The notes under the pieces: model-generated
Databases searched by the model: none
What the model saw: only the letters and a program-made list of their open reading frames with translations
Told to the model about the DNA's origin: nothing
Assembly (NCBI GenBank): GCA_026770705.1
Contig: JANJGN010000055.1
Location: 1,488,001 to 1,552,000 of the forward strand
DNA: 64,000 nucleotides
Reading direction: 5' to 3'
Source of the DNA: Isurus oxyrinchus
Taxonomy: Eukaryota
In this document: piece by piece, positions 5,481 to 64,000 of the stretch
Position numbering within the stretch: the first letter of the stretch is position 1
Layout: every line of letters starts with the position of its first letter
Position numbers and translations under genes: made by a program

Positions 5481-7559
5481 CGGGAGATTGCTGAAATACG
5501 CAGTGACTCCGGGGCAAAATGATTAGATGGGGTGGACAAACATCTTCCAATCACGACGACAGAAGAGAGGGCTTTGCATATTTATCCAGAAAAAGATTTC
5601 AAATGTTGGAATCGGGACACTTATGGTTTGTACGTACTACTTATCACCCACAGCAGTTATGGTATTTGCCATCGTGGTTACACTTGGTGTATGTCAGAAT
5701 CAAAACTACATTTTGACCAAGTTTCAGCTCAAGCAAATTCCTGCCTGATGCTGAACAAGGAGTTGTGGAAAGTGAATAGACACCAGATTCAATGGAGGAG
5801 ACGGAAGTTATCAATGGCATTCTAGTGAAAGTGGACATAAGCTTAATTTGGCTTGTGAGGATTTCTAATGGTCTGGAAACGAAGGATTGTACCCAGCATT
5901 ATGCGGTACAAAAGTTGGATCCCTGGAAGTTACACAAAAACAACATGTCGTTTTTATAACTTTGCAATCATTGTTTCATAGTAGGAAATAAGAGGCAAAA
6001 GGAATGGAGATACCTCATGTTTCACCTGCGGGCCTCGGTAGCACATCTCTTGTGGAACAAGGCATGACAGCGGGAATGAGGGTGAGGAGCAAAACACTGC
6101 CTTCCTGATATATGATTCCTCAGTGCTGGGTCCTTTTGGATGAAAAAAGAGGAAGTGGTCAACATCACTTGTTAATGTACATCTGATTGGCAGAAATGGG
6201 ACGGATTGCCAAAATAGTGAAGGGATCATAGAAATGTAAATAGGAATTCGGTAGTTTTATGTGGCTGTCAAATAATCGTGACTAGAAACTTCGAAGATGC
6301 TGTTAGTTGTCTGTAATGTAAAATCGTGCACGCATTTCAAACACACGGCAAACAAAATCCAGCCACTTACACTTCAAATTGGCAGGCACCGCATTCATTT
6401 GCAATCATTGTGATTCTAAGCAGTCCTCTTTGTAGAGAAGAATACATGGTTGTTTATCAAAACAGAGCATAAGTGTTGCTGAAAAAAAGAAACAAGCTGT
6501 TGAAGTGTATTTTTTTGGCTTGCAGTCAACATGACAGATTTTCAATATTACCCATTGTGATGAAAACAACAATTCGTATTGCATGAGATAAGACTGCTGA
6601 ATCGCTTCCAAGTGGACTCGGATTGGTTTAGACATGGCCGTGGGGCATCAAGTTTTTAAATCTTTGACCAATCAGAGTGACCAGCATGAGTTGAATTTAC
6701 CTGTTCCCTGGTGCATACACAATGACAACGCTTCTGCGAATCGGCATCAATTTGCAACTGTAGAATTATTCAAAGCGTGGGTCAGTAACTGGATTAGAAT
6801 AGGTTATTTCGTCATTATCTTCGTTGTTTCAATTGATTGAATGCTCGATACCATGGCACTCTCTCCATGTCTTTTTTATAATGCAATTGATTACAAACAC
6901 CTTTGCCAGAAGTCCACGTTTGAATCAATCCCATGAATCATCCACACCTCCGACATTCCAAGAACAGTTTCTATAACAACTGACTTAGAAGGTGACTGAC
7001 AAAATTAAATGAACCCTCGTCATCCTACGCAGACCTATGTTCCAGATTTTAAATTGTGGAACACTCCGGCCTCTCTCAACTCCTTTGCCCTATAATGTAC
7101 CTGGATTGTACTTCCATCACTTGTTTCCATTATAAATTTTCCAATAGCACTCTAGAAACAAGCTGAAATCACTTCTCTCCCTGCTCCTGCACGATATGTT
7201 TCTGTGCAGCCTGCAAAAATTCAATCAGTATTCAGTTTCTCATCTGCAAACCGTGCCTTGGTAATGTCATAGAAAAAATGTGCTTCAGTTTCCACATGTG
7301 CACAGTGCACGCCTAATTCCTTCTCTCATCCACATGCCCTGTTCCTCACCGACCTTCAGTTAGCTATGCTGTTGTCTGACATTCAGAATTCGAGGAAAAG
7401 AATGTCTTCAGTCCACCTCAAAAGCTCTGCTCCATTACGACAATCTCCATGCTCCCTTCGGTATCTATGTGATCAACGACAACTTTGAAAGGGGTTGACC
7501 ACACGAACATATATCTACCCTACCGCTATTCCCTTGGAAGCTCACCGATCTGCGACATT

Positions 7560-8170
7560 GTCAAAGTCTATCCCATGTTTGGACTTGTCTGATCCTGAAA
7601 CTCCTATCCATTCGGTTTACATCACTAGGTCGTATTATTCTCGCTTATTTTTGTTACCCTCCCACAATCTGCTCGTAATAATCTTGAGACGACCTAAAAC
7701 AATTGCAGCTCATGGCTTGGCTCACATCCAGTTCTCTTGATATTTAAGTCCTGCTTTCGATTAGCAACATCCAGTCCAGATAAATCAAAGACTCGATTTA
7801 ACATTTCTCTGTTGCCAGGTAACTCTGAGGCTTCTTCAAAACTCAATCTCAGTAATCTGCTCCAAGCCCAAGCCCTCTGACACCATTGTGCTTCTCAAGT
7901 ACTAGCCAATTCTTTATCCCGGAATTTAATCGCTCTACTGTTGCCGATGGCTTCAGCTCTCAATTTCATTCCCTCAGTCAATGAACCAATTAGAACGTGT
8001 CTTTGATTTTTTGGATCACCTTAAAACCTAACTCTTGCCGACGCTATTTCTCATCCCTATGTTACCTTCCAGTGTGGCTCGGTGTCAAAGTGTACTGTCG
8101 AATGTATTTTTCAAACTCTTGGGATGATTTGTTATCTTGAAGTCGCTATATATAAGCAACGTGTTGAGTT
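7560..8170 (+). mobile_element. L2-clade LINE 3' end, decayed
   Basis: ggaatttaatcgctctactgttg..., gtgtggctcggtgtcaaa and the tail ttgggatgatttgttatcttgaagtcgctatatataagcaacgtgttg match the L2 3' terminus pattern. Confidence 0.65.
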
Positions 8171-9031
8171 TATAAAACAATGACTTTATGAGCTCTTCAT
8201 AGTTACATTGCTCGTCATTATATAAATCTCTGATCGCGGTTCACAAATTCAGTATATTAGCTAACATCTGAATGACCTCAGATAAAGAGGGTAGAAACAA
8301 CCCAGGGTACAGCAAAGGATCCTTGAAACCTTCCTGTTGATATTTCGAATTCAATTACAAAATTAATTCACCCAAGTAGAGTTACCACTGAAATAAAATG
8401 AGACCTCGCAACGTTTTAGTACCAACACCATTGCAGGCTAAATGCAACATGCTTGCATCAATAATTAATTATTTTTGAAGTATTTCTCGTTGCCCATTTT
8501 ATAATTTCACTGATTATGGGCCAAGAACTGAAGTGAGACACCTGACTTGAGCGGTCACGTTTCAGCCAGCGTATCTTTCATTGAATACTTGCTAAATATG
8601 TGGGTCATTAAGAGAAATAGAGAAAACCGGTCCTTCATTGCCATCCTTGCTTCAAGTGAATGCTTGCTCGACCCCATGCCTCAGCCTCCGTGTTTTCCGA
8701 ATGAAATCTAATGAAAATACCTTCATTGGAAGTATTTGACACTTCTTGTATGAGGCAGAACGTTCTGTGATTGTGGTTTGCTATTTGCCCACGTAAAGCG
8801 GAAAAGGCGTACAGCTTTCTCTGGAGAGAATTTATGTCATTACAACAGGGACTTAACTTGGTTGTTGCAACCTGTTTGCCCAGATTGAGTTAAAGAAAAG
8901 CTCAACTGAAAAGTACAGAAACCTCAAGCTTCCTGTACACATCCGTAGGGTATACATTAATGGTTGTGGGAATTTACATTCAGAGATAGTGAGGTCTTGC
9001 AGAGCGAAATGACGTTTCCTTTCGAGGCAAA

Positions 9032-9098
9032 ATACATAGACCAATTGGCATTATTCTTAAAATATACTACATTATCCTTGCCATCATTGGTGTTCCTG
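9032..9098 (+). pseudogene. Exon 1 of GPR139/GPR142-like orphan GPCR pseudogene A (N-terminus and first half of TM1)
   Basis: Reads (I)HRPIGIILKIYYIILAIIGVP-G and is followed by a canonical donor GTAAGT at 9099. ATA sits where the initiator ATG is expected. The phase-1 split inside GVP|xN joins exon 2 at ~14265. Confidence 0.75.
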
Positions 9099-10414
9099 GT
9101 AAGTTACTAAAACCATTGATGTTGTGGGAACATATCTGTGAGCTGGTCCCTGTTTTCTGTGTGCCAAATATAATCAAACCCTGATCTTCTGTGCAATGTA
9201 ACATATCTAGATTTAGATATTTCTCTTTTTCAATCAGTTCTACTGAAGGAGCCTTCCCATAGTGTCTGAATTAGTGGCGTTTTTATGCACTTAGTGACAT
9301 GTTGCATGTAACTGACTCGGGACATTGTGTGGACGTATTTCTGGGAAAATGTATTCCAGGAATGTTCTGTCATGGTACAATTTCACTGTATCGTATCGGT
9401 TGCAATTGATTGCCAAAGTTTTGCTCGGAAATATTTGGCACAAGTTATATCAAGTGAAATAATTTGAAATCGATGTCTGCTAATGAATGAGAAGAGAACA
9501 AACAGGTGAGAAGTGCTTAATGACGGGTACACAATATGACAGCATTTTCCCTGTGGTCAAGAGCCTGTACAATGATTGATTGCCTTTCTGTGTACTATGA
9601 AAACAATGACTTTATGATGATTAAACCAATTACCCAACACTGCCCTAAGAATTGATAGGTCACCAACTTTGTTTTGGTGTCCTGCTGTTACTCCACATGA
9701 GCAGTTTGCTGTCGATATGGAATATTCTGGACTATTCTACCTCTTCATCTGAATAAGGTGTGACAATCTACTTCTTGCTTGTGATTCATGCTCTCTAAAC
9801 GTGCAACCTGCAACGATAACAACCCATAGATCAGTGGCGTGTCTCCAAGCGAGAATTGATACAGTTGAATAAAGAATATACTTACTGTGTTTTCAGTAGA
9901 CAAGGATCAGTCCCTGCCATTAAATAATGGCTTCACTAAACTGTCAGTAGTGCAATATATTGCGCACTGTTGCAATAATAATAATAATAACTTCAATGCC
10001 TGTAACATTATAAATAGAACACTGACAACACTGATTAATTGACCCTCGAGTTATAGAAAATTAGTTTAGCTCTGAAACTGACTGTATGGTACAACTTGGT
10101 GTCTCAGGTTCTGCTCTACCCACAACTAAGTCACATCTCACGACTCTCTAACTCAATCCACGAACCTTGTCCTGTTGGGTTTTATTCCTCATGCTTACAC
10201 CTTATTGTCACGTAATTGCATCTAACATAATTTCCGTGAGAACTAAAATTGTACTCAGTTCCCTCTTCTAACAAATCCAAGGCAAGTAAATCTTCCGAGT
10301 TGTCTTTCAGGATTTAATACTGATTAAATTCAGTTTATGATACTCATACAATGAACATTTTTTGAGTTTTCTTCCTGAATTATTATTGCTGTTTTTTTTT
10401 CATATTACATGTCT

Positions 10415-26300: not shown

Positions 26301-28401
26301 TTTGTCCATTTGAACACGTTTATGCTCATGAGGTAGGGGGACCAGTGAAATTGAATCATCAGAAATTATTCAGTTAAAATTCAGAAACTATTCTCCGGGG
26401 TTACTTATCAAACCTAGGGAAATTATGAGCATAACATGTGAGTTGGCCGGGGAACATTTAAAAGTATCACAGCAAGAAATGAAAGTGGAAGCAAATAAGA
26501 AGGCTATAATTAGCAGTCTTGAACTGAGGAGAAAGTATTAGTTTTGCTTCCAGCACTAGGGGATTCCATAAATGCAAGATATATGGATCCTTACAGAGTT
26601 GAAAATAACTTGAATGAAGTAAATCATTTACTAATTATTACAGATAGAAGAAAGAAGCAGAGGGTGTTCATATAAATATGCTTGAGAAGTACTTCGAAAG
26701 GGAAGAGGAATAAAAAGAGTTGTTAATGATGGTGGATGATCAGATAGAGCTAGAGCTACATGACTCTGAAATCGATACCACTCTAATCAAATTGGTTAAA
26801 GTGGGGATGCTTGAAAATTTAAATGAAATGTGAAGTTACCTTCCAAACAAATTTCAACGTGATTTGAAAAAGCTAATGCAGTCACACAAACATATTTGTG
26901 CAAATATGTTGTGAAAAGAACGTTTAGCTACATTTGATGTCTCAGTGCACTTTCATCTTCAATAAGGCAACATCCTTACAGTTAAAATCCGACACAGTTA
27001 CCACATGTATAATAATAAATTGATCTCCTGCTTTAAAATGATATCATTGAGAGTCCTTGCAGTACCTGTATTTCGCCCATTGTACTGGTGCCGAAACCAA
27101 TTGGAAATCAAATACTGTTTGTGGACTATTGGAAAGTGAGTTCGGTGCCTAAGGCAGACTCATATTCCCCACCACAGTTCGAAGTTTGCATTGAGAAAGT
27201 GGGACAATCGAAATTTAACACAAATATAGGCTTGCTCAAAGGATAGTGCCACGTGCCTTTGTGGCATAGAGCAAAGGAGATATCAGTTTTTGTAACGCCA
27301 AGTGCACTAAGTTAGTTGAAAGTCATGCCATTTGGTATTTCAGAGACTGGCAAAGAAAGCCATTGTGGGTCTAAGCAATTGTGTTCATATTGATGATCTA
27401 ATTGTTTTCAGACAGTTGTGGCAGGAACACTTACAGCATCTGGAAGAATTATTTATTCCACTACATGAAGTTAATTTGATTATCAACTTGGCTAAATGTG
27501 AATGTGAAAAAGCGCAAGTTACCCATCTAGGCCATATCATTGGGAATGGTAGGGTGGCTCCGCGCGTCGCGAAAGTGAAGATTGTCATGAATTTCCAGGT
27601 GCCTACAACAGAATGAGAAATATTGAGATTTCTGGGCATGAATGGGTTTTACCGGACATTTGCACCCAATTATAGGCAAGTGGTTGCACCACAGATTGAA
27701 CTATTTATAAAGAACAAGAAGTTTCAATGGACACTGGAGTATCAGAAGTCCTTCAATAGCTTGAAAACTGTATTAATTACGGCAGCAATATTGGCAGCAC
27801 ACAGTCATGCCAAGCAATTCAAGTTGGCAGCTGATCCAACCGATATAACTATTGGGGTTTGCTCCTACAAGAAGATGGCATTGGAATTGAAAAACAGATA
27901 GGAAATTTAGATATTAACTAGTCGAGAATGATACTTTGAGGTTGGTGCTCGCATTGTGGTCTTTTCAAATTCACGTTGCAATTCATCATAAACTTTTGAA
28001 ATTCATGTTGCAAATAATTCATCATAAACTATTGATTCAATGGATTGTGCTCCGTTGAAGTTTTTGGACAAATGTCAATACAAAAGTTCAAAGCTTTTCA
28101 GATGGATCTATTATTACATCCGTTTAATCTACACATTATACATATTGCTGGAAGGGAAAATATGTTCACAGATATCAAGAATTTAAAGCTTAAGATAAGT
28201 TGGGACATTAAAAATATCCTGGACACTGAACTAGAGTGATTTTTGTTGATACCAAGTGCTTTTTAAAATACATTATTATGTAAATGCATGGATCGTGTAA
28301 TTTATTAGTATAATGAATAAAGGAGATAGTATGAAATGGGTGATTATCATATGGCTGTCTTTTTAGAATTACGGTGGCTCATCTTTCGCTTAAGAGGGGA
28401 A

Positions 28402-52082: not shown

Positions 52083-55000
52083 TACCCATTCCTGTCGAAA
52101 AATGAACAGTCAGCATCCTAAAGGAAGTTTCCATTCTTTAATAAACCATCTCACACTATGTCCCATACTTATTAGCCTATTATATTACCAGACGCATGCA
52201 TTAAAATAAGGCATCGTTCCACTGCAATGACCATGTTTTTGAAAATCCACAATTTTCCTTTAACATTAAAACGCAGGTCCTCCACATGTATAATCCATAG
52301 AATAAATGGTTGTAATAATAATCTCTTCGTACAAGGTCTTGCACTTATAACACAAAATTTGTCCAAATCTTCATGGGATTGTGGTCCAGATAAATAATTG
52401 TTTCCAATGAATTGCTTGCAACATAAATTTCAAAATGCTGCGTTGCCAGCATTATTGAACTCTATTTCTATCGTTGACTGTCGGCTATGTTGCTCGTCCA
52501 GCTTCTGTGAAAAAATATCCGATCGATTTTACAATTCCAATGTTGTAAAGTTGTAACCGTACAGCCATAGTGTCTATATCGCTTGCATCAATGGTGAACA
52601 TAAAGTGGCATAATTGGGAACTTCCAAACTTGATGTCATAGTTAACACGTAGCTTTCGAACTACTCAATGACTTCTGACACACCAATGTCCATTGAAACT
52701 TCCTGTTCATTTATGATAATTCAGCCAGTGGAGCAACCACTCGGCTAACATTTGGCATAAATTTACCGTAAAACCCACTCATGCCCAGAAATATCATAAA
52801 TTCTTGCTTTGTCGGAGGTCCTGGGAAATCCACGATATCCTTGACGTTCACATTACCTGAGAGCAACCTTACAATTTCCAATGATATGTCCTGGATGCTT
52901 AACCTGCACTTTTGCAAAATCACTTTTAGCCGAGTTCAACGCCAAATGAGCTTCTTATATTCGAGTAAATATGTTTTCCAGAGGGGGTCAATATTCTAAA
53001 TACAAACGTTTAGATCATCAATAAAAGCAACACAATTGCTTAGACCCGCAATTAATTTGTTTGTCATTCTTTAAAATGTCACGTGTGTATACTTCATAAC
53101 AAATGGCATGAATTTAAACTGGTGTAGTTCACTTGGTGTTACAAAGGCTCATATCCCTATTGCTCTCTCTGACAAAGGTTGCTGCCACTTTCCTTTAGCA
53201 AGCCAAGCTGTGTGATAAATTTCGATTGTCCTACTTTCTTAATACAATCTTCCAACCGTCGTGTAGGATATGAATCCGTTTTTGTCACCACATCCATCTC
53301 TCCATAGTCCAGAGAGAGTCATAGTTCTCCAACTGGGTTCTGTACCAATGGATTAGGTGCACTCCATTTAGTGCAACTAGACTCACATATATAGTTTTGA
53401 AGCACAAAAGTAAGATATTTTTTGTATTTGGGATAACTTTGCCGGATTTAATCTGTAAGGATGTTGCCTGATTGAAGAAAGAACTTGCACTGAGGCATTA
53501 AATATAGCAAAATGCATGTTTCCCAAATTCTTTCCACAAATACACATCTGTTACTGCAAAATAATTTCCAAACCACTTTGACACTTGTTTGGAACGTAAC
53601 TAAGTAGTTCATTAAAACTTTCAAGCACCCCCTCATTTTCTAATTCGATTAGAGGAAATTTAATTGTAGAGACCTGCAGTTCTAATTGTTCTTCTTCAGT
53701 CACCATCAAAAATAGCTCTTTTTGTTCCTCTTCCCTGTGAAAGCACGTTTGAAGCATATGTTCGTGTCCGACCCTCTGCTTTTTGGTTATATCTGGAGTA
53801 TGTATTAAATAATTTCCTTCAATCAATTTCTTTCCGATCCTGTAAGGTCCAGTAAATCGTCCATTTAATGAATCAGTTCGCAATTGTAACTGAACTAGCA
53901 CTTTCTCTCCAGAAGAAAAACGTTGTGGTTTAGCCTGCTTATTTGCCTTCACTTTCGTCAATTGCTGTGATATGTTCAAATGTTTCCTCGCCAACTCACA
54001 TGCTCTGTTCAATCTTTCCCTGAAATCTTATGTAATCCAAAAAATATCTTTTGTATTTGACCCATCAATTTTTCATGAATCAGCTTCAGTTGCCCCTTAC
54101 CTTAGAGGCATACATTAGTTAAAAAGGGCTGAAACCAGTCGATGCATTTGGAGCATCTCTAATAGCAAATAAAAGGAATGGAATTCTTGCATTCCAATCC
54201 TGTGGATAATTCTCACAATATGCCGTTCTCAATGTCTTTAGAGTTTGAAGCCATCTCTCAAAAGTTCCCCGTGATCCCGGAAGATAAACTGTTGACCTGA
54301 ACTGTTGAATCCCCAAATTGTTCATTTTTTTCACGAAAGAGGTGCGAAATGAAATTTGAAGACTTATCTGATCGCTTTTTTTTCCCTACACCCTACACCA
54401 TAACATGCAAAAATAAAAAGTCCTCCACAATCCTCTGAGTTGAAATATTTCACAATCGTTTCAGGAAATCTCGTAGATACATTGATTATTGTCAGAAAAT
54501 ACTGATTTCCACTTTTGAACTTAGAAAAGGGTCCTACACAATCAATTGTAGCCCATGTAAAAGGTTATTCAAACGGTGGTATAGGGATTAAACGCATGGC
54601 ATTAATCACTGCTTGACATTTATGACAGGTTCTACAGAATTTTAATAAATCCCTATGCAAACTGGGCAAAAATGTAAAGGCAATGGTTCGTTCCCTGTGT
54701 TTTCCTAGTTCCTAAATTTCCACACATTGGAATTTGGTGACATTCCTCAGAATCTCGTTTTCTTTTACCCAACTGGGATGATAACCTGATGAACTTCAAT
54801 GCAGTCTTCATTTGCTAAGAAATGATCCGACTTCTGCTTTTACATTTAGATATCTCCCTAAAGATAATAAAATATTGGAGTACAGTTTGCGTCTCTTTCT
54901 GCATAGGCTTTCTGATATAACTCCTTTATTTGTAAATCCTTTATTCTGTAACTTCACTAACTTCGTTGAGTTAAACACTTCTGTTGAACGGTCCTGCCCT

Positions 55001-55225
55001 CTTTCCTCCAGAAAAATGATATCAAATACTACCCAAATAGCTTTTGAACTGCTTGCCCTTCGTGTGCGACTCGCTCTTCCCAGTAAGATTTTGACCTCGT
55101 TACAACACAATCAGGAAAGAATCCAGGATGTTCCTACTGTAACAGCTCTTTTGGAAATAATTATACAGGTTGCTCAACTTCTATAGGCATCAACCACATT
55201 TGCGATCCAGCTCTATCGTTGCACA

Positions 55226-55936
55226 TGTTGGCCACTGGCTGCAGCTGAACTGCCAGACACAGGCAAAAGCAACTTTTGAACTGAAGTCACTTGAGTCCAG
55301 TTGCTGGCCTGAGTAACTTTTCAAATCTGACTCCAATCACTGGGTCCGAACTGATTAGAACCGCTTTCAAAGAAGCTGCGTTTCTTCAAGACAATGGAAA
55401 TGTGATGCGTCCATATTTAGAAACAGAGAAACGAAATGATCCTTCAAGTCTTGGAACAGCGAATAGAGAAGATTCCAAAGATCAGAAAAGCAGACCAAAA
55501 CCAACGGGAAGAGAGACAGAACAGCTTGAAGATATACAATTCACCGTAACACTGAGAGGATTTCGGGCATCGGGCAGCGAGACTCTGGAGACCAACCATC
55601 GCAGAAGCGAGGGAAACTACATCCGCAACGTAGAGATGCACGGGAGAGAGAAGGGAATGCCTGGCCAGCATCAGCTCTCCTTTTCGGATACTAGCTTTTA
55701 TATTCTGTGACCACTCAGGGAGTGTCAGAGAAACCTAGTGTATGAGTGTTTAGATCCTAGTTCTGGGTATAAAACTGGATAACCTGCTGTAAACTGTATG
55801 TCTACATTTAAACAGATGTATGAATTGTGTGTAGATGATCTAAAGACGTGAATAAGCGCGTTTAAAGTTAAGAGAGAATTCGCTCTACTCCTCTGTGTAC
55901 TAAGCCATTAACCATTACCGGTAACCTCCTGCAACA
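55226..55936 (+). repeat. Putative 5' LTR of the ERV
   Basis: Begins TGTTG exactly where Gmr1 protease homology stops (~55222) and ends CAACA (5-bp inverted termini) just before a PBS. There is no second copy to confirm it. Confidence 0.6.
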
Positions 55937-55940
55937 TGTT

Positions 55941-55958
55941 TGGTGTCCCTTTGTGAGC
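55941..55958 (+). promoter_or_regulatory. Primer-binding site, elongator tRNA-Met-like (degenerate)
   Basis: tggtgtccctttgtgagc versus TGGTGCCCCGTGTGAGG, 4 nt after the LTR's terminal CA. Confidence 0.45.
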
Positions 55959-56064
55959 TCAAGGATACGTCTCTGAGTTCAGTTACCGGGAGACTCAGGC
56001 GAACCAATTTGGCAAAGTATAGGCATAACAGGAGTTTGGGTTAATTCATAGCTGTTAACATAAG

Positions 56065-57805
56065 ATGACGAATCAAAAGGAATATCTGTTTTGACTGGAA
56101 GGGAATTCTTCATAAATACATAATAGGGGAGTGGCCGCGTTACACGGAAAATGTAGGTCACATTGGTCACAAGGGAAATCCCGCTATAGAGGCCCTTTGG
56201 AGAATTGCGCAAACAAAGATGTCAGATAAGAAATTTAAAACAGGTACCGAAGTCCGTAGCGATCGGATGTTTATTTCAGGAATGGATAGAATGCTAAAAG
56301 CAAGCTAGGAGAGAGCGAGACAAACTAGAGGAAGAAAATAAGAAACTCCATGAGGAGTTTAGTGAGAAGTGCCTTAGTGAGAAGGTTACTGATTTAAAAC
56401 AGCAGAGAAGTGTGGATTTGTTGCACATGAACCGATATCAGTTACAGTTCGAAACATTGGCTGATAAAAAAGAGTAAGGGAGAGGGAGAAGCCCAAACAG
56501 CTAAAGCTGAGGAGGAGGGTTGGAAACAACAACGTAGTGATTTTAAAAGTGCTATGAATGTGATTCACAGAGCAGCTCAGGAAAAGAGGAGCACTACCGG
56601 TGATCACACAAAGTGTCAGAAACTAATAGTGAGGCTGCAAGATCAGCCACCTGCACAGGGGGGCATACAGTGTGCTTTTACACCCGGAAGAAGTGAAGAA
56701 AAATGTCAAGGGGATATAGATTGGGATGATTTAGCAGGCGGGGCGGATAGATACAACGGGGGTGACGAGAAAACTCCACCAGAGGATCCACCACCGGCAT
56801 ATAAACCAGATCCGGAAAAACTGTCTGCCCCAATGGCCCACCTTGTAACCACTAGAGCAAAGGTAGGGCTGATGGCCAGGGTCAAGCCGGGCCCAATATG
56901 ACATATTCCAGCCCACTTGGGATACAAGCACTGAGGGATATTGCAAAAGATATAGGGACGTGTGCACCCAGGGATGATCCGAGCGAGTGGTTCCTCGCAG
57001 TCAGGCAACAGGGAGGGGTACACGGCTTAGACGATGATGAGGGAAAATTAATTCTAATTTGCCTACACCCACATATATACTCTGCCCTACCGGAGGAGCA
57101 AAAACTTGGTAGAGGCACAAATGAGGCCTCAAAGAACCAGGTTTTACCTGTCATGGACGATAACAGAGGGGTCCCAGTGTAGGCGCTGATGAAATGCTAT
57201 CAAAGAAAAGGTGAATACACCACCACAGTTTGGCTCGCATTTGGGTGGTATTTTAATTGGCCAATGTCACTGGCCTAGATAAGAATAATTTACAGCTGGA
57301 GCTTAGGAACTGATGGCAGAGTATGCTCGTGTTGCAAGGCACTGAGGAGTCGAGGAAAGCATTGGATCATTTTAATTCCACATATGACGCACATAGAGAG
57401 CACTGGATAATGAAAAAGATAGTTGGAGTATGGGAAAGGGAAACACCAAAACTACTCAAGACATCCAGGGACAGAGCAATGCTTGTTAAGAATCAGCTGA
57501 CAACCTGGAGAAATGAAGGGAGGGGACCTCCTCAGTGGGACCCCGCTCCAGCCTATCAGACATTGGGTAGAGGCAGAGGAAAAGGAAACTTCTCGGGGAC
57601 GGGGAGAAATCAGGGCTAGGCGTCCAGATGGTATAACTGTGGCCGAGAGGGAAACTTCTCAAGCGACTGCCCAAACTGGAGACGAGAAAATTCAGGTCAG
57701 GGAGGAACCCGGAGCCTACCCATGGAAGGACCGAATAGAGCAAGTCCGCAGTGTGATATGATAGAAATACCAGCGAGTTCTGAGTTGTACCCCGAACTGC
57801 AATGA
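56065..57805 (+). pseudogene. gag: ERV gag (frameshifted and stopped)
   Basis: Coiled-coil N-terminal region, PPPAY (56788-56802), capsid-like block (ORF 56898-57182), GRGRGKG patch and degenerate knuckle WYNCGREGNFSSDC (~57629-57670). Ends at TGA 57803-57805. Confidence 0.7.
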
Positions 57806-60800
57806 CGGTCTCAGGCCTCTCCATAATGGGTGTGTGATATGCAGTGGGATGACACGGGAAGACCCCGAGTGAATGGTAGGGTTGGACGCTGGCCGATTAA
57901 ATTACTTTGGGACACAGGGGGATCCCACACCGCCTTCAGCACCAGTCAGATCAATGACATAGATTGGAAAATTAAAAATAACATTTTTCTAAGCCGATTC
58001 ACAGGACATTCACAAGTAGGATATGTGAGTGTACCGTTGGAAGTTGGTGTGGGAGACATATTGATAGAACATTCAGTGGCTCTTATCAAATTACCCAGAG
58101 AACTAGAACATCTTTCAGGGAGCGACTGTATGGTCAAAGCAGGATTCTGCTTTGACCTAGTTAATTGTATGATTTGACAAATGCCTTTGGACAAAGGCAG
58201 TATAAATCACACACTCACTGGGTAGGAAAATATCAGGATAGGATATGCACGATCGGGGAAACGTGGATAGAACCAGGAGAAATGAGTGACGATCTTCATG
58301 TAAAGCAAATTATTGCACAAAACTCAATATTAATCGTCCGACTAAAGCATGATTGTGGGAAAATGACCAGACGTGTGTGCATACAAGGTCCAGACTCCAA
58401 ACCACAAAAGCAGTACGGTTTACCAAAAGAAGCAGAATAAGGGATAGGAAAGGTGATACAGAGTCTGCTGCAGCAAGGGATATTAAGACCAATAGCTTCT
58501 ACTAACAATGCACATATATGGCCGGTGAGAAAAACCAACAGCAGCTGACAACTACAGATAGACTACAGAGAATTAAGGGAAGTGACCCCTTTAACACCCC
58601 TACTGGAGCAACTATCCCAGAGACAGTAGTTCGACAAAATGAGAATGGCAATGGTTTACAGTTTTGGACATAAGTAACGGTTTTTGGTCTAGTGCACAGG
58701 AGAAAGTATGTCAATATAAATTCGTTTTTACTTTCTATGGAAAGCAATATACATGGATCACCCTACCATAGGGATTTCAGAATTCCCTGTCCATATTTCA
58801 CCAACGTGTAAGGGAAGGGTTAAAAGGATTCTCGAGGCCTGAATTTCTAATGCAGTATGTAGACGACGTACGCCTGCAAATTGAAACCAAAAAGCAACAT
58901 AATCAACGACTAAGTGAATTACTGCAGTTAAATGACTTGGGATTAAAGATCAACCCTAAACAAGCGCAGATCATGAAACAATAAGTTACTTACTTGGCAA
59001 TGATTGTGACATCGGGGAAGAGGGACATTGACAAGCGTAGGATGAACACAGTTGGCAGACTCAATGTTACAAGACGTAAAAGGGTTAACGTCCTTCTTAG
59101 ATTTGGTGTGATATTGTAGGGACCACATAGATGGATTCACCAAAAAAGCAGCACCGCTAATGGAATTATTAAAAAAGAATTTGACCTGTGAGTGGAAAAC
59201 ATTACAAACCCAGGCCATGAACGCTCTAAAGCAAGCATTAGCTGCTGTGTCAGCTCTGAAAACCCCAAATCCAACTGAGCCATTTTCATTTGGGGTGGCT
59301 ATCACAGACACCACCCTTTCAGCAGTTCTACTACAGGAGACACATGGGAAATTACGACCCGTAGCGTATGCCTCACATATGCTCTCACCAGTAGAGCAGG
59401 GGTATACAATATGCGCAAAAGACTTGCTGTCTTTTGGGCAGTGCAGCATTTTACCTTTATAGTGGGAATAAACACAATTACAACATTAACAGAACACATC
59501 CCTGTACAGCTACTGAATTACGGAACGATTAAGGATGGTACAGTTAGCCCAAATAGAATCCCTAGATGGATAATGTTGCACGGGAGAAATATAACCATAA
59601 AGGGGGATAACACACTATCATGTTAATAGATAATTTACTTTATCAGGGAGAAAAACAGGAATGTCAAATGATGAACGCAAATGACTGCAAGGGCCCATTT
59701 GTATCAGAACAAAAGGGAGGGAGTAGGACTGGGCCTGAAAGTAGAAAAACAAAGCAAACAGGAAAGGAAAACCCTATTTTAAATCCTGGTGGATGGCTCT
59801 TCATCAGTACAGCATGGGGAAAGGAGAACTGTCTGTGGGATATCCATGGAGTATGAAAACGGACAGGAAAGATTTAGTGCGGCTTTGAAATATCCATAAA
59901 ACCATGAGTGTGCAGGGAGCAGAACTAGCAGCCATTGCATATGTGGTTCGACACCCGGAATATTTCCGCCTAGATCAGTCATATATTTTGATGGCATCTC
60001 TGTCTGTAATAGCCTCACAGAACATTTGCCCCTATGGGATGCAAAAGATTTTGTCTCTGCAGATGGAAGGCCTCTTCCTTCCTCCCCGCTATTACAATAC
60101 ATCTTTCAAGAAGCACAAGGGAAAGAATTTGTGGTCAAAAAAGTTAAAGCTCATTCAAAATTACCTCCCGATGGGAACAGGAAAGCTGATGACCTAGCCA
60201 AACGAGGTGCTGTAAGTGGAAAGGAATAGTAGCCACTGATTTTGGAAATCGGGGGCCAGAAAGAGAAGCAGGTTAAAGTAGTGGATTTAATGGATGAGCA
60301 AAAGAAAAATGGAGAATTGAAAAAATTAATAGAAGGAGCACAGTCAGACATATTTAAAAGGCACGAGGGGGGTCTATATTCAAAATTGAGTGGTTTTACG
60401 TGAGCGGAAATTTGGGGCACCAGAGGAGGGGCGAAAGCAAATTATCCACCAGTACCATGACTTATCAGGACATAAAGGAATGGAGAGCACCCTGTATTCG
60501 ATAAAGGAGGTATGCTGGTGGCCAGGAATGAAAGGTGGTGTGCACCACTATGTCAAGAATTGTTGATTTGTGCACAACACAACCCCGATAGAAATTTTAG
60601 GAAAGGGGCCTCCAACATAATAGACCAGTAGAAGGGCCTTGGACTAAGTTACAGATAGACTATGTAGGATCCCTTCCCCCACAACAGAGAACTACAAGGA
60701 TATTCTAGTATTATTGGATACCTTCACTAAACAGGTGGAAGCTTTTCCGAACAGAACAAACACAGCCAAAATTACTGCATTTTTTTTTTTTGGGAAGGTG

Positions 60801-61150
60801 TTTACATGCTGGGGTTTACCTGGAGGCAGAGAATTGCATCAGGGAACATGTTTTACAGCCCAAGTAATGCACGATGTTATGAATCTTTTTTTGGGATCAG
60901 GCAGAGATTCCACATACCCTATAGACCACAGTCTAGTGGAAGTGCGGAAATTCTGAAGCGGACATTGAAAAACATGCTAGCCAAAATGGTGCAGCAGCAC
61001 AAGACAAACCGGCAGATTGTTCTGCCCTATGTGCTGATAATAATCAGGAATACCATGGCTTCAACAGGATACACTCCTTATAGGCTTATGACAGGTAGGG
61101 ACATGAGGGGATTGGAGGGGTTGGTAGATCTGGATTTGGACTCAAGAATG
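57806..61150 (+). pseudogene. pol: ERV pol: protease, RT, degenerate RNase H (tether), RNase H, integrase
   Basis: PR LLWDTGGSHT. RT IWPVRK, LDISNGFW, KFVFTF, LP*GFQNS, QYVDD (58853-58867). RH-1 SAVLLQETHGKLRPVAYAS..LAVFWAVQHF. RH-2 ILVDGSS / AELAAI / IYFD / KVKAHS..GNRKADDLAK. IN HDLSGH..WWPGM..C..C, GPWTKLQIDYVG, PYRPQSSGSAE..NTMASTGYTPY. Confidence 0.88.
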
Positions 61151-61159
61151 AGGTTTGTT

Positions 61160-61406
61160 GATGCATATTAATCATTACTCGTTGTTCGGGGCTCAACTCT
61201 ATCAGGCTAGCTTTTGCATCGAAATAAGCCTTGCTTTGCTGTTTCTTCTTTCCCTGTCGGTGAGCAGTTACATAATTTGCTTCTTGTACAGTTTCTACTA
61301 GTTGTTGTACCCATTTTACTAAAATAATGTGTAAACACTTTCTCTAAAATAAATTTCGAAATAATTTTGGATGTGTTTGATCTGGTCGGAAAAGTTTCCA
61401 CCCACT
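61160..61406 (-). mobile_element. Inverted ERV integrase fragments
   Basis: Minus strand WVETFPTRSNTSKIISKFILEKVFT (copy of 60735-60806) joined to VKWVQQLVETVQEANY..KKKQQSKAYFDAK..PEQRVMI (integrase C-terminal linker). Confidence 0.7.
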
Positions 61407-61460
61407 AGGTTGACCACATTATATCAGACAAAATTGCTGTATACCCCAACAGTTCAAAAT

Positions 61461-62188
61461 TGTTATGCCATAGCAGTTTTAAAAGACTGTTATTTAAAAT
61501 CCGAGGGGACAACTTCCAACAATCGTCATAACCGATGTTTTCAACTGGAGTATTTGATATGGAACTCTGAATTCATAAATGAACCCGCCAAACCCCCAGA
61601 CGTCTCTATATCAAACTAAATTAAACTTGTATTGTTTTGCAAAAAAGGTATTAAACACATACACATGTCTACACATTTCTATTTTAAATTTTAAACAAAG
61701 TCCCAAGGAAACAATAACCAATAGACTTAAGCAGACACTAGGCGGAGCATTTTCACCAGACGAATTCGAAATGTAGTTCCTTACTGTTTGGTTCCAATAC
61801 TAACAGTTTTAATCTTACAAATTTTCAACTTACACGTCTCTGTGATGCACATGGGTTCACCCTTTGCTAAACCTAGCCTTTCTTTCTGAATGCAAATTTT
61901 CATTGTATGACCAGGCCCTTTGAAATCCGTTCATAGTTCCATTGTCATCAGTAATAAAAGGATTGCTTGGTGTCTTCCTAACTAGATGCAAGATTTCATC
62001 CGCACTCTTGAATGTTCTATTTAGCAAAATGCAAATGTATCCGCCAGCCCTGTTTACATCTGAAAACTACGGTACACCAAAGCACCCAGCCTCGCTGGCT
62101 TTCATCCAATTAGCACACACAGACTAATACTCGATTAAAAATGTTAGAAATACTCCAATGATATTATCATTACTTCCTCTTCCTGACA
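61461..62188 (-). repeat. 5' LTR of element 3
   Basis: tgttat...cttcctgaca, a direct repeat of 51331-52082. Confidence 0.85.
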
Positions 62189-62193
62189 TCAAA

Positions 62194-62480
62194 TCTCTGA
62201 CAGCGAGAGACATTTTATTGGCCAGCCGAGTTCACCAGAGACTGAGGGGGCAGACTGTGGGAGAGAATCACAGTTTCGATCTTTGGTGTATATTTTAGAT
62301 ATCTTGATGTCCTAAATGCTTGAGATGATGAATTTTCTTGCACCTATGATAATGTTGCGTAAATGCTGTGGAACTTAAGTTTGCTGCACAAAAAAATATT
62401 TATATGTTGACTCAGGCTTAGTTCAGGGTGCAGTTACAGAATGCGCTGAATCATCCACTATATCGATTAAGAAATTAATT
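62194..62480 (+). pseudogene. GPCR pseudogene B, 3' part of the main exon (ICL3, deletion, TM7/helix 8)
   Basis: SLTARDILLASRVHQRLRGQTVGENHS directly continues LLPIGLIPLFN at 51330. Later MLWNLSLLHK..IYMLTQA*FRVQLQNAL parallels MLRNISCCINT..VTQSKFREQL of copy A. Confidence 0.85.
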
Positions 62481-63089
62481 GCGGAACAAAAGAACTGAGA
62501 GCAGCTGAAATATCTAGAATCATGGGGCATGAGGTAACCGCAGCAGTATCGGAAGTAATGCATCCAGAGGAGAGCTGTTAACGAAAATTAAGATGGGTCA
62601 GTGAGCGGGAAAAACTGAAAAAAATTGTGCCACAGTTATCTGATACAGCGAAAAGCAGTGGGTCAAGATCATCGGGATACTTCCGGGGATTGCATTCAAT
62701 GAGCACATTTAAGCAGACATTGAAAATACATTTATTAACTATGCAGGCGGAGACTCCAACGCCAAAGGCTGCGTTTCAATGTCGAGATATAACATGCAGA
62801 GTCCGGGGAATAAATTAACAGATGGAGGCGGGCAGTCAAGAGAGCAGAGGACAAAGGACAAACTTGGTCTTTGGTGAACCGGAAATGAAGTTGACAGGAA
62901 GGCAGTAAAAACGTTCCCTGATGAACATAAAATAGCACAGCAGATACATTCTTTCCTCAAAGTAGACTTGCTCGATTTTGAACTCCTTGCTTCTTCTCAG
63001 AAAGAACGGAAAACAAGTTTGTATAACAGCGAGAGGCTGCATATAGATGAAATCTCCTTTGGTCAATATGCTTTTATTCATTTGTTTAT

Positions 63090-63250
63090 CCCCCATCCAT
63101 CCCTCTTTCTGTCTGTCCGACCGTCTGATCGTCCATTCTTCCATGGATTTTGTATGTCCCTCATCCCGTTATTCTATCCGTTCGGCCATCTATCACCCTT
63201 CCCGCACCCATTTAGTTTGCATCCATACATCTATCGATCAATCTATTGAT
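63090..63250. repeat. Degenerate (CCAT/CTAT/CCGT)n tetranucleotide repeat
   Basis: ccatccatcc...ctgtctgtccgaccgtctg...catccatacatctatcgatcaatctat. Confidence 0.55.
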
Positions 63251-63299
63251 TTTGTTATTCATTTATTGAAACGAATTATTGTATTGCCCTAGCCACCTT

Positions 63300-63905
63300 C
63301 CAGCCTTATCGCTGTCCTCTATTTATATCTCTCCCCCCAAGCTTTAAAAGACGCTGTTCATGGCTGAGCGACTGTGTGATCACACATGGAGCCAGGGTCG
63401 CCTTGCTCCCAAAACTTTTCATCTACTAACTCTTCCATATCTCTGTAAACCTACTAAGCACTACAACAGAGTTTATCACTGTGAAGCCTACCAGCCAATA
63501 GTGCACCTCTTCCCGCCCCCGATCTCTATAAGTTCCTCTAGCGGCTCCAACACTCCATCTTTCACCCCCTCAAGCACCTACACCTTAACTCGATTTGTGT
63601 TCCCTTGCAGTCTCTTTAACCTTTAAGGATATCTGGAAACCTCCATTACTGGAACTTGTCCTTTTCCATTTTCATTTTTCCACCGTTGGAGGCCGTGCCT
63701 TCAGCTGCATGTTTGTAAGGAATGTAAAATTGCATTCCTCAATCTCTCAGCCCCTTGTTTTGTGGAATTCAGGGCGCACCTCAAAATCTTTCTCTAAATC
63801 CTAATTTCTCTTTGACTGGATGTAAAGCCTTTGCTTTCTAACGCACCTTTGAAGATGCTTGTAAGCTTGGACTATAAGAATGGAATAAGGAGTATATCAT
63901 CTATG
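63300..63905 (+). mobile_element. L2-clade LINE 3' end
   Basis: ttccaccgttggaggccgtgccttcagctgc and neighbouring motifs typical of the L2 3' region; homologous to 1080-1510. Confidence 0.6.
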
Positions 63906-63943
63906 TTTAACGTATCCCATCTTTGACACTCTGTCGAGCTCTT

Positions 63944-63964
63944 TCTCTCTCTCTCTCTCTCTCT
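63944..63964. repeat. (TC)n microsatellite
   Basis: tctctctctctctctctctct. Confidence 0.9.
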
Positions 63965-64000
63965 TTCTGTGCCGCATTCTGTACCGTCTTGCCTCTCCCT

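Follow-up and report, generated by a model that had tools for sequence, protein, structure and literature searches.

The decayed provirus at positions 55226 to 61150 of the window, that is, of the 64,000-nucleotide stretch of the Isurus oxyrinchus (mako) genome analyzed here (contig JANJGN010000055.1, positions 1,488,001 to 1,552,000 of the forward strand; assembly GCA_026770705.1), is very probably a dead copy, truncated at its 3' end, of a multi-copy shark endogenous retrovirus (ERV) with a canonical reverse transcriptase (RT), likely of class III, whose sibling copies encode an envelope protein (Env) homologous to that of lokiretroviruses (loki) and predicted to be of the paramyxovirus fusion (F) protein type. 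A sequence-only reading had taken the element for a lokiretrovirus-type provirus, possibly of an undescribed cartilaginous-fish lineage, on the strength of its tandem RNase H domains. The retroviral character of the provirus, with a tether and an acquired RNase H, was borne out; the assignment to lokiretroviruses was not.

The envelope of the sibling copies

Using the long terminal repeat (LTR) and pol as queries, as that reading had proposed, we retrieved at least 41 pol matches from the host genome (~5 Gb; 40 of 82 candidates scored), and the family comprises at least 40 copies. Twenty-six siblings were examined in detail. Five of them carry a long env, 18 an env with an internal deletion of 0.9-1.2 kb, and three are truncated; selection of the siblings relied in part on env queries, so that these proportions are not free of bias. 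Most of the deletions belong to one of three breakpoint classes that copies share (7, 6 and 3 copies), and the furin site and the fusion-peptide region are missing in every case. In its long form, env encodes a signal-peptide-like N-terminus and the furin site RKKR, after which come GLLELAGAGYASGVA, a heptad region, a cysteine-rich part and a transmembrane (TM) segment. The stretch GLLELAGAGYASGVA resembles a fusion peptide, and Env is predicted to have a class I fusion function. Neither a CX6CC nor an immunosuppressive domain (ISD) motif was present in any of 19 env pieces.

In HHalign comparisons, the env rows of the family alone matched a loki Env profile with E 1.3e-5 (0/40 shuffles reached the score). 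When stingray homologues were added, the match was E 3.2e-6 (0/30 shuffles), and with other env families of the host genome added it was E 8.2e-8 (Prob 94%, 0/40 shuffles). This last alignment is collinear with loki Env over 242 columns, starting at the furin site. The highest score falls in a beta/cysteine-rich block (LxxVHNVG...LSxC...HWxCP) separate from the coiled coil and the TM segment, both of which were trimmed or lay outside the hit. These profile comparisons show the sibling Env and loki Env to be homologous. One of the loki Envs used matches PF00523 (E 0.002), and an F fold is predicted for the sibling Env because of its homology to loki Env. The sequence-only reading had suggested examining any downstream open reading frame for similarity to paramyxovirus- and pneumovirus-type fusion proteins; the link through loki Env was found in the siblings, and the direct match to paramyxovirus F proteins is weak.

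Several observations weigh against this view of the envelope. The env was described from sibling copies, the window copy itself having none, and the loki Env profile was built from only two sequences, from two loki loci. Alignment with 35 paramyxovirus F proteins was collinear but weak (E 0.009-0.08, reached by 0-1 of 30-40 shuffles), and the comparison with foamy virus Env did not rise above shuffles (1/40). Pfam searches with env gave no PF00523 hit, and Pfam and PDB sequence searches returned nothing relevant. Fold predictions were of low confidence, with a pLDDT of 30.7 for the single-sequence read-through and 30.6 for a stingray homologue with a 10-row alignment. In the ESM Atlas, the results for the C-terminal half of env were sub-threshold and mixed, with class III fusogens leading; for the stingray protein, spike, hemagglutinin (HA) and F-type clusters led, also below the threshold. 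Further, a search with the C-terminal half of env among longer proteins was blank, and a Foldseek search with the stingray homologue model gave no hit at E<=0.001 and was not used.

Origin of the envelope

Wang and Han (2022; PMC9040795) stated that no similarity is detectable between canonical and loki Envs and preferred independent env gains, and a 2026 paper (PMC13524379) retains the division. The case for independent origins of lokiretroviruses and canonical retroviruses rests on this dissimilarity, and a family that combines a canonical RT with a loki-homologous Env is a direct counter-example to the statement. In our literature search, which did not extend to subscription journals and covered the supplements of the loki papers and of bioRxiv incompletely, we found no published loki- or F-type Env on SnRV-related (snakehead retrovirus) or class III ERVs.

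One tentative interpretation, which we consider possible rather than probable, is that the F-type Env shared with loki is ancestral, that it was kept in a basal aquatic grade of canonical retroviruses (the mako family, its shark and ray relatives, SnRV and foamy viruses), that gamma- and beta-type Envs replaced it in orthoretroviruses, and that elasmobranchs may have co-opted such envs. Wang and Han (2022) set this out as their scenario II but preferred two independent gains. Weak similarity extends to SnRV Env, which aligns collinearly with the family Env (E 0.004-0.04, reached by 0 of 30-40 shuffles); the C-terminal half of SnRV Env (whole env at 6131-9535) aligns weakly with both the family Env and paramyxovirus F, which suggests that SnRV also has an F-type fusogen.

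A rival account that might equally be entertained is that recombination brought the env of a lokiretrovirus (or a mononegavirus) into a class III virus with a canonical pol. This would leave the classification of the family intact and would oppose only the vertical inheritance of Env; an env acquired sideways would be uninformative on the ancestral retroviral Env. Recombination between env and pol is frequent in anamniote retroviruses (bioRxiv 10.1101/2021.11.23.469661), and in our integrase (IN) tree loki joins the frog and coelacanth relatives of the family (starred support, 95/84). In its best blocks, however, the family Env shares 21-30% identity with loki Env, and related Envs (24-36% identity) occur in several divergent host families, at least three of them with an RT whose best match is among the same class III references. 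The weakly matching layout of SnRV Env and the F fold of foamy Env (PMC11468914) also speak against capture.

Convergence is an improbable source of the likeness. On that account, the furin site, the hydrophobic peptide and the coiled coil would have arisen separately in a fusogen of another or new class, and the missing Pfam hit, the failed folds and the leaning of the C-terminal half toward class III fusogens would be expected. But the best-scoring block is beta/cysteine-rich and lies away from the coiled coil and the TM segment, and 0 of 30-40 shuffles reach the loki-Env score.

The combination of a canonical polymerase with a loki-related sibling Env makes it likely that the predicted entry protein, of the style of measles virus and respiratory syncytial virus (RSV), is more widespread among retroviruses than assumed. 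A survey of anamniote Envs used gamma- and beta-type queries only (bioRxiv 10.1101/2021.11.23.469661), and fish and amphibian screens with such queries would have missed this type of Env, including co-opted copies. With foamy Env structures at hand, the order of Env gain and replacement becomes testable by comparing Env trees with RT trees.

Related envelopes in sharks and rays

The closest Env proteins are those of the horn shark (78-79% identity) and stingrays (49%), and the suggestion of a cartilaginous-fish lineage is probably correct. The horn shark relatives (Heterodontus francisci; P0288 and P0289) likewise carry an internal deletion, but its junction is not the same, a hint that the fusion region has been lost repeatedly in this lineage. 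Hypanus sabinus (XP_059838750.1) and Hemitrygon akajei (XP_072911529.1) possess open 745-aa homologues that are 96% identical between the two genera and ~49% identical to the mako family env; they represent a candidate co-opted env.

Another candidate for co-option lies in the host genome itself (contig C40, ~8928250-8930430, minus strand). This env is open over 727 codons and has a signal-peptide-like start, an RDKR furin site and a TM segment. The surrounding provirus has a pol with at least 14 stops, to which frameshifts are added, and LTRs that are ~82% alike, and a stop-free frame over 228 codons was found in 0/9 env paralogues examined. No RNA record was listed as containing this env, and contigs of a second organism cover the stretch only as short pieces mixed with paralogues. 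The C40 frame and the stingray proteins are the genes to which the co-option part of the ancestral-Env interpretation may apply.

More env families are present in the host genome (contigs C1, C6, C10, C14, C16, C17 and C21; L160-L170), with 24-36% identity to the stingray protein. The RT pieces of L159 (the C40 provirus), L160 and L162 best match class III references, and the short RT pieces of L161 and L170 best match walleye epidermal hyperplasia virus (WEHV).

Phylogenetic position of the polymerase

The best database matches of the polymerase were frog and coelacanth Pol proteins (50-53% identity). At the RT, a sibling copy is 51-54% identical to the frog and coelacanth proteins, 45% to SnRV, 34-38% to loki, 33-35% to foamy viruses and 30-34% to gypsy. 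The RT and RNase H phylogeny that the sequence-only reading had called for placed the element outside Ty3/gypsy and epsilonretroviruses, in agreement with that reading, and did not place it with loki. The family fell in the canonical clade in three RT trees, with starred support of 97 (84 rows, quick tree), 100/99 (47 rows, LG+G4) and 99/99 (27 rows, C20 mixture). In all three, loki was monophyletic without the mako family and sister to canonical retroviruses. The approximately unbiased (AU) test rejected a grouping of the family with loki (p=0.0004) and of a wider 11-row clade with loki (p=0.011), and did not reject a grouping of that clade with SnRV (p=0.44). Trees of the second RNase H (RH2) and IN likewise recovered loki without the mako family (starred, 100/96 and 100/100, respectively). 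Further, the family has the canonical RT motif LPQG where loki has PFG, and no PLSRWPM-type motif.

Within canonical retroviruses, the RT likely belongs to the SnRV-related grade and lies apart from both the gamma/epsilon/class II clade and foamy viruses. Clade Huo is this SnRV-related class III grade (PMC6001957, PMC8922424). Clade III accounts for most ERV RTs of cartilaginous fish (PMC11089739), and SnRV-related ERVs are known from the elephant shark (PMC4422223).

Some points must be set against this placement. The support for the 11-row clade was 93/93 (47 rows) and 90/88 (27 rows), neither of them starred, and grouping with SnRV was not recovered with support. The joining of loki IN with the frog and coelacanth relatives implies that some modules are shared with loki. 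The RT trees contained no identified ERV-L or Odin sequences, and the loki and SnRV references were assigned by comparing their motifs with a published RT alignment rather than by name. The SnRV label is further backed by a 10,688-nt sequence 99% identical to the reference (P0010), and WEHV-1 was identified by name. Foamy and class II RTs were taken from a viral contig collection, in which the family RT had no match.

That the element is an ordinary fish ERV, epsilon-like or foamy-like (FLERV), is very improbable. The best PDB matches of the RT are of the murine leukemia virus (MLV) type, foamy viruses being next, and epsilon-related viruses of fish and toads are reported to have UGA gag stops (PMC13517186). 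In the 47-row tree, however, the RT lies outside the gamma/epsilon/class II clade (starred, 99/98) and outside foamy viruses (starred, 100/100; fish FLERVs were not among the identified references), gag and pro share one frame, and Env lacks the gamma-type ISD and CX6CC motifs. Ty3/gypsy was rejected, since the RT lies outside the gypsy clade, the first RNase H is dead and a second is present. Odin retrotransposons lack env, have an RT sister to that of loki and come from cnidarians; such an element was rejected on the env of the siblings and the canonical RT, a comparison made with no Odin sequence in the tree.

Tandem RNase H domains

In an alignment with gypsy, loki, SnRV, WEHV, gammaretroviral and foamy proteins, the first RNase H (59270..59600) has A, H and E at the catalytic D, E and D of gypsy. 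The domain is gypsy-like and recognizable, as had been noticed from the sequence, and its first catalytic Asp is indeed gone; the loss is not confined to that residue, all three acids being replaced. The D-to-A change was present in 9/9 in-frame siblings read (a tenth row, frameshifted at the catalytic site, is outside this count), and the other two changes in nearly all. Because the siblings have these changes in common, the dead first domain is the state of the family and not a result of decay. The second RNase H (59780..60215), described earlier as having all its catalytic positions, does retain D-E-D-H-D, in a frameshifted copy, and the sibling domain matches retroviral and cellular RNase H structures.

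A tether followed by an acquired RNase H is common to all retroviruses (PMC7947760). Pfam RT_RNaseH_2 scores were 87-89 bits in the mako family, 102 in frog, 89 in coelacanth, 95 in a loki protein and 46 in SnRV. A recognizable first domain does not mark loki, the canonical frog and coelacanth relatives of the family scoring 89-102 bits, and the tandem arrangement is an ordinary retroviral feature that is not diagnostic of loki. Class III ERVs are the common kind in cartilaginous fish. The interest of the family lies in its Env and not in its RNase H domains.

The idea of a true lokiretrovirus, which would be the first from cartilaginous fish, is largely refuted and hardly credible: the dual RNase H with a well-recognizable tether, the loki-homologous sibling Env, the NYNRIN-like annotation of the relatives and the grouping of loki IN with them speak for it, but the three RT trees and the AU test, LPQG in place of PFG, the RH2 and IN trees, the different tether substitutions (EKHLL/TEH in the mako family; EKALL or ERALL and TAH/TCH in loki) and a survey that found 0/6 chondrichthyan genomes positive for loki speak against it.

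Copies in the host genome

The siblings have the canonical layout of Retroviridae (LTR, primer binding site (PBS), gag, pro, pol, env, polypurine tract and LTR, with target-site duplication), ~8.5 kb long in env-deleted and ~10 kb in long-env copies. Their LTRs are ~690 bp (18 pairs, 85-94% identical; a further repeat pair, in L019, is not an LTR and is left out of the count). They carry a polypurine tract, and 4/7 siblings examined show a perfect 4-bp target duplication. In several of them the PBS is identical to the reverse complement of a host tRNA-Asn gene, and ARAGORN called host tRNA-Asn(GUU) at 4/4 loci.

Gag and pro share one frame in the siblings, with TGA between them. Among 27 sequences examined, CGG followed the gag TGA in 15/19 readable junctions, a spurious pattern match being excluded. 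UGA-CGG belongs to the known type II readthrough contexts, and a few aquatic retroviruses are reported to have UGA at the gag junction (PMC13517186). Four partly overlapping rows of the region 3' of the gag stop contained 0 compensatory pairs, and accordingly no RNA structure is claimed. Apart from the zinc knuckle, no useful match was obtained with Gag. The sibling integrase is extended by ~100 aa and ends at a conserved TAG (15/19 readable copies), with env next in the same frame.

Pairwise dN/dS was 0.45 among 10 copies of pol and 0.39 among five copies of env, compared with 0.62-0.93 in shifted frames, consistent with spread while env still worked. Six copies including that of the window are 96-100% alike, and the remaining copies are 83-86% identical. 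Three of the near-identical copies were checked, and the match spans ~11 kb including both flanks; they are thus host segmental duplicates. Window positions 52970-64000 recur over ~11 kb at 97-98% on host contigs C119, C53 and C65, and two further near-identical pol/LTR copies lie on C65 and C166.

The life cycle of the family may be pictured as follows. Minus-strand synthesis would be primed by tRNA-Asn, since the PBS is complementary to the host tRNA-Asn, and Pol would be made through readthrough of the conserved in-frame UGA-CGG. The first RNase H would serve as a structural tether and the second would cleave RNA, as in all retroviruses. Env would act as a class I fusion protein with furin cleavage, a role predicted from its motifs. 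The family would have spread first by infection (env dN/dS 0.39) and then as env-deleted sub-lineages with shared breakpoints. As the comparison of copies shows, the window copy later lost its 3' end in an inversion/deletion, and segmental duplication in the host amplified it together with its flanks.

Organization of the window copy

Three-frame translation and motif mapping recovered all of the motifs listed in the sequence-only reading, scattered across several frames. All lie on the plus strand, with YVDD of RT at 58856; GVAITD (59292), SAVLLQE (59319), RPVAYAS (59355) and LAVFWAVQHF (59423) in the first RNase H; VDGSS (59789), AELAA (59919), IYFD (59981), KAHS (60146) and GNRKAD (60173) in the second; and YHDLSGH (60453), VKNC (60552) and ICAQH (60566) in the HHCC integrase. 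Pfam searches of the window frames identified RVT_1 (E 4.9e-6), RT_RNaseH_2 (first RNase H, E 1.7e-17), RNase_H (second RNase H, E 4.8e-7) and Integrase_H2C2 (E 9.4e-16), confirming the YVDD RT, the second RNase H and the integrase. The copy is dead, with more than 12 frame changes and many stops.

The 5' LTR (55226..55936, plus strand, ~710 bp, TG...CA) matches both LTRs of the siblings, and its termini show that 55226, proposed earlier as the start of the element, is the true edge. The LTR had 434 first-look candidates in the host genome, and 40/40 of those scored matched. All features up to 61138 are on the plus strand. A decayed PBS (55941..55958, 14/18) complementary to the 3' end of tRNA-Asn(GUU) is followed by a broken gag with a coiled-coil-like N-terminal part (56069..57802, start approximate), delimited by tblastn to sibling open frames. 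Its CCHC knuckle lies at 57638-57670 (zf-CCHC E 0.008 in the window, up to 5e-8 in siblings). The in-frame gag stop, CAA-TGA-CGG (57803..57808), is predicted to be read through into pro-pol. The aspartic protease (57806..58200; DTG at 57911; Pfam gag-asp_proteas E 0.0025) precedes the broken RT (58400..59260), the two RNase H domains described above and a broken integrase with the HHCC domain and core (60390..61138). The siblings are colinear with the window copy up to 61138. Beyond it lie two minus-strand pieces: an inverted C-terminal piece of integrase (61135..61331; 86-90% to the corresponding part of the siblings on the opposite strand) and a second inverted fragment, of the integrase core (61326..61446), where the recognizable provirus ends. 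Neither env nor a 3' LTR was found in the window and the next 20 kb.

Upstream, at 52600-55225 on the minus strand, is a decayed LTR-retrotransposon-like pol with integrase apparently ahead of RT, and the ERV apparently inserted in or beside it. Pfam was near blank on this element, so its Gypsy identity comes from reading motifs by eye, by which it looks Gmr1-like. A related inverted copy lies at ~26400-27800 of the window.

Comparison with known systems

The mako family resembles clade Huo/class III, represented by SnRV, in having a canonical RT outside the gamma/epsilon/class II and foamy clades (PMC6001957, PMC4422223). SnRV has the highest RT identity among named viruses (45%), a similar in-frame gag stop and similar tether and RNase H, and an Env layout weakly alignable with that of the family. 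However, it is not a supported sister; its gag stop is UAG-GGC rather than UGA-CGG, its tether is much less well conserved (46 bits versus 87-89), and its genome and Env are longer than those of the family. No accessory open reading frames were seen in the family, though no search aimed at them was made. CmiERV lineage I of the elephant shark is comparable by its published description, not by sequence.

The frog and coelacanth NYNRIN-like Pols (P0001, P0002, P0004, P0005 and P0006) are 50-53% identical over RT and tether, share the EKHLL tether and form one clade with the mako family (97, starred, in the quick tree; 93/93 in the 47-row tree). Their RH2 and IN did not group with those of the family with support, and they are known here from Pol proteins alone.

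Lokiretroviruses (PMC7947760, PMC9040795) share with the family the dual RNase H with a gypsy-recognizable tether and an Env homologous over 110-240 columns. They differ in their RT, RH2 and IN clades, in PFG where the family has LPQG, in the lack of a significant Gag match and in an smc gene that was not seen in the mako family.

Foamy viruses form a separate RT clade and show no significant Env sequence match, and the mako family differs from them in its in-frame gag-pro with a CCHC knuckle. They are nevertheless canonical retroviruses with an F-type fusogen, their Env having the paramyxovirus/pneumovirus F fold (PMC11468914).

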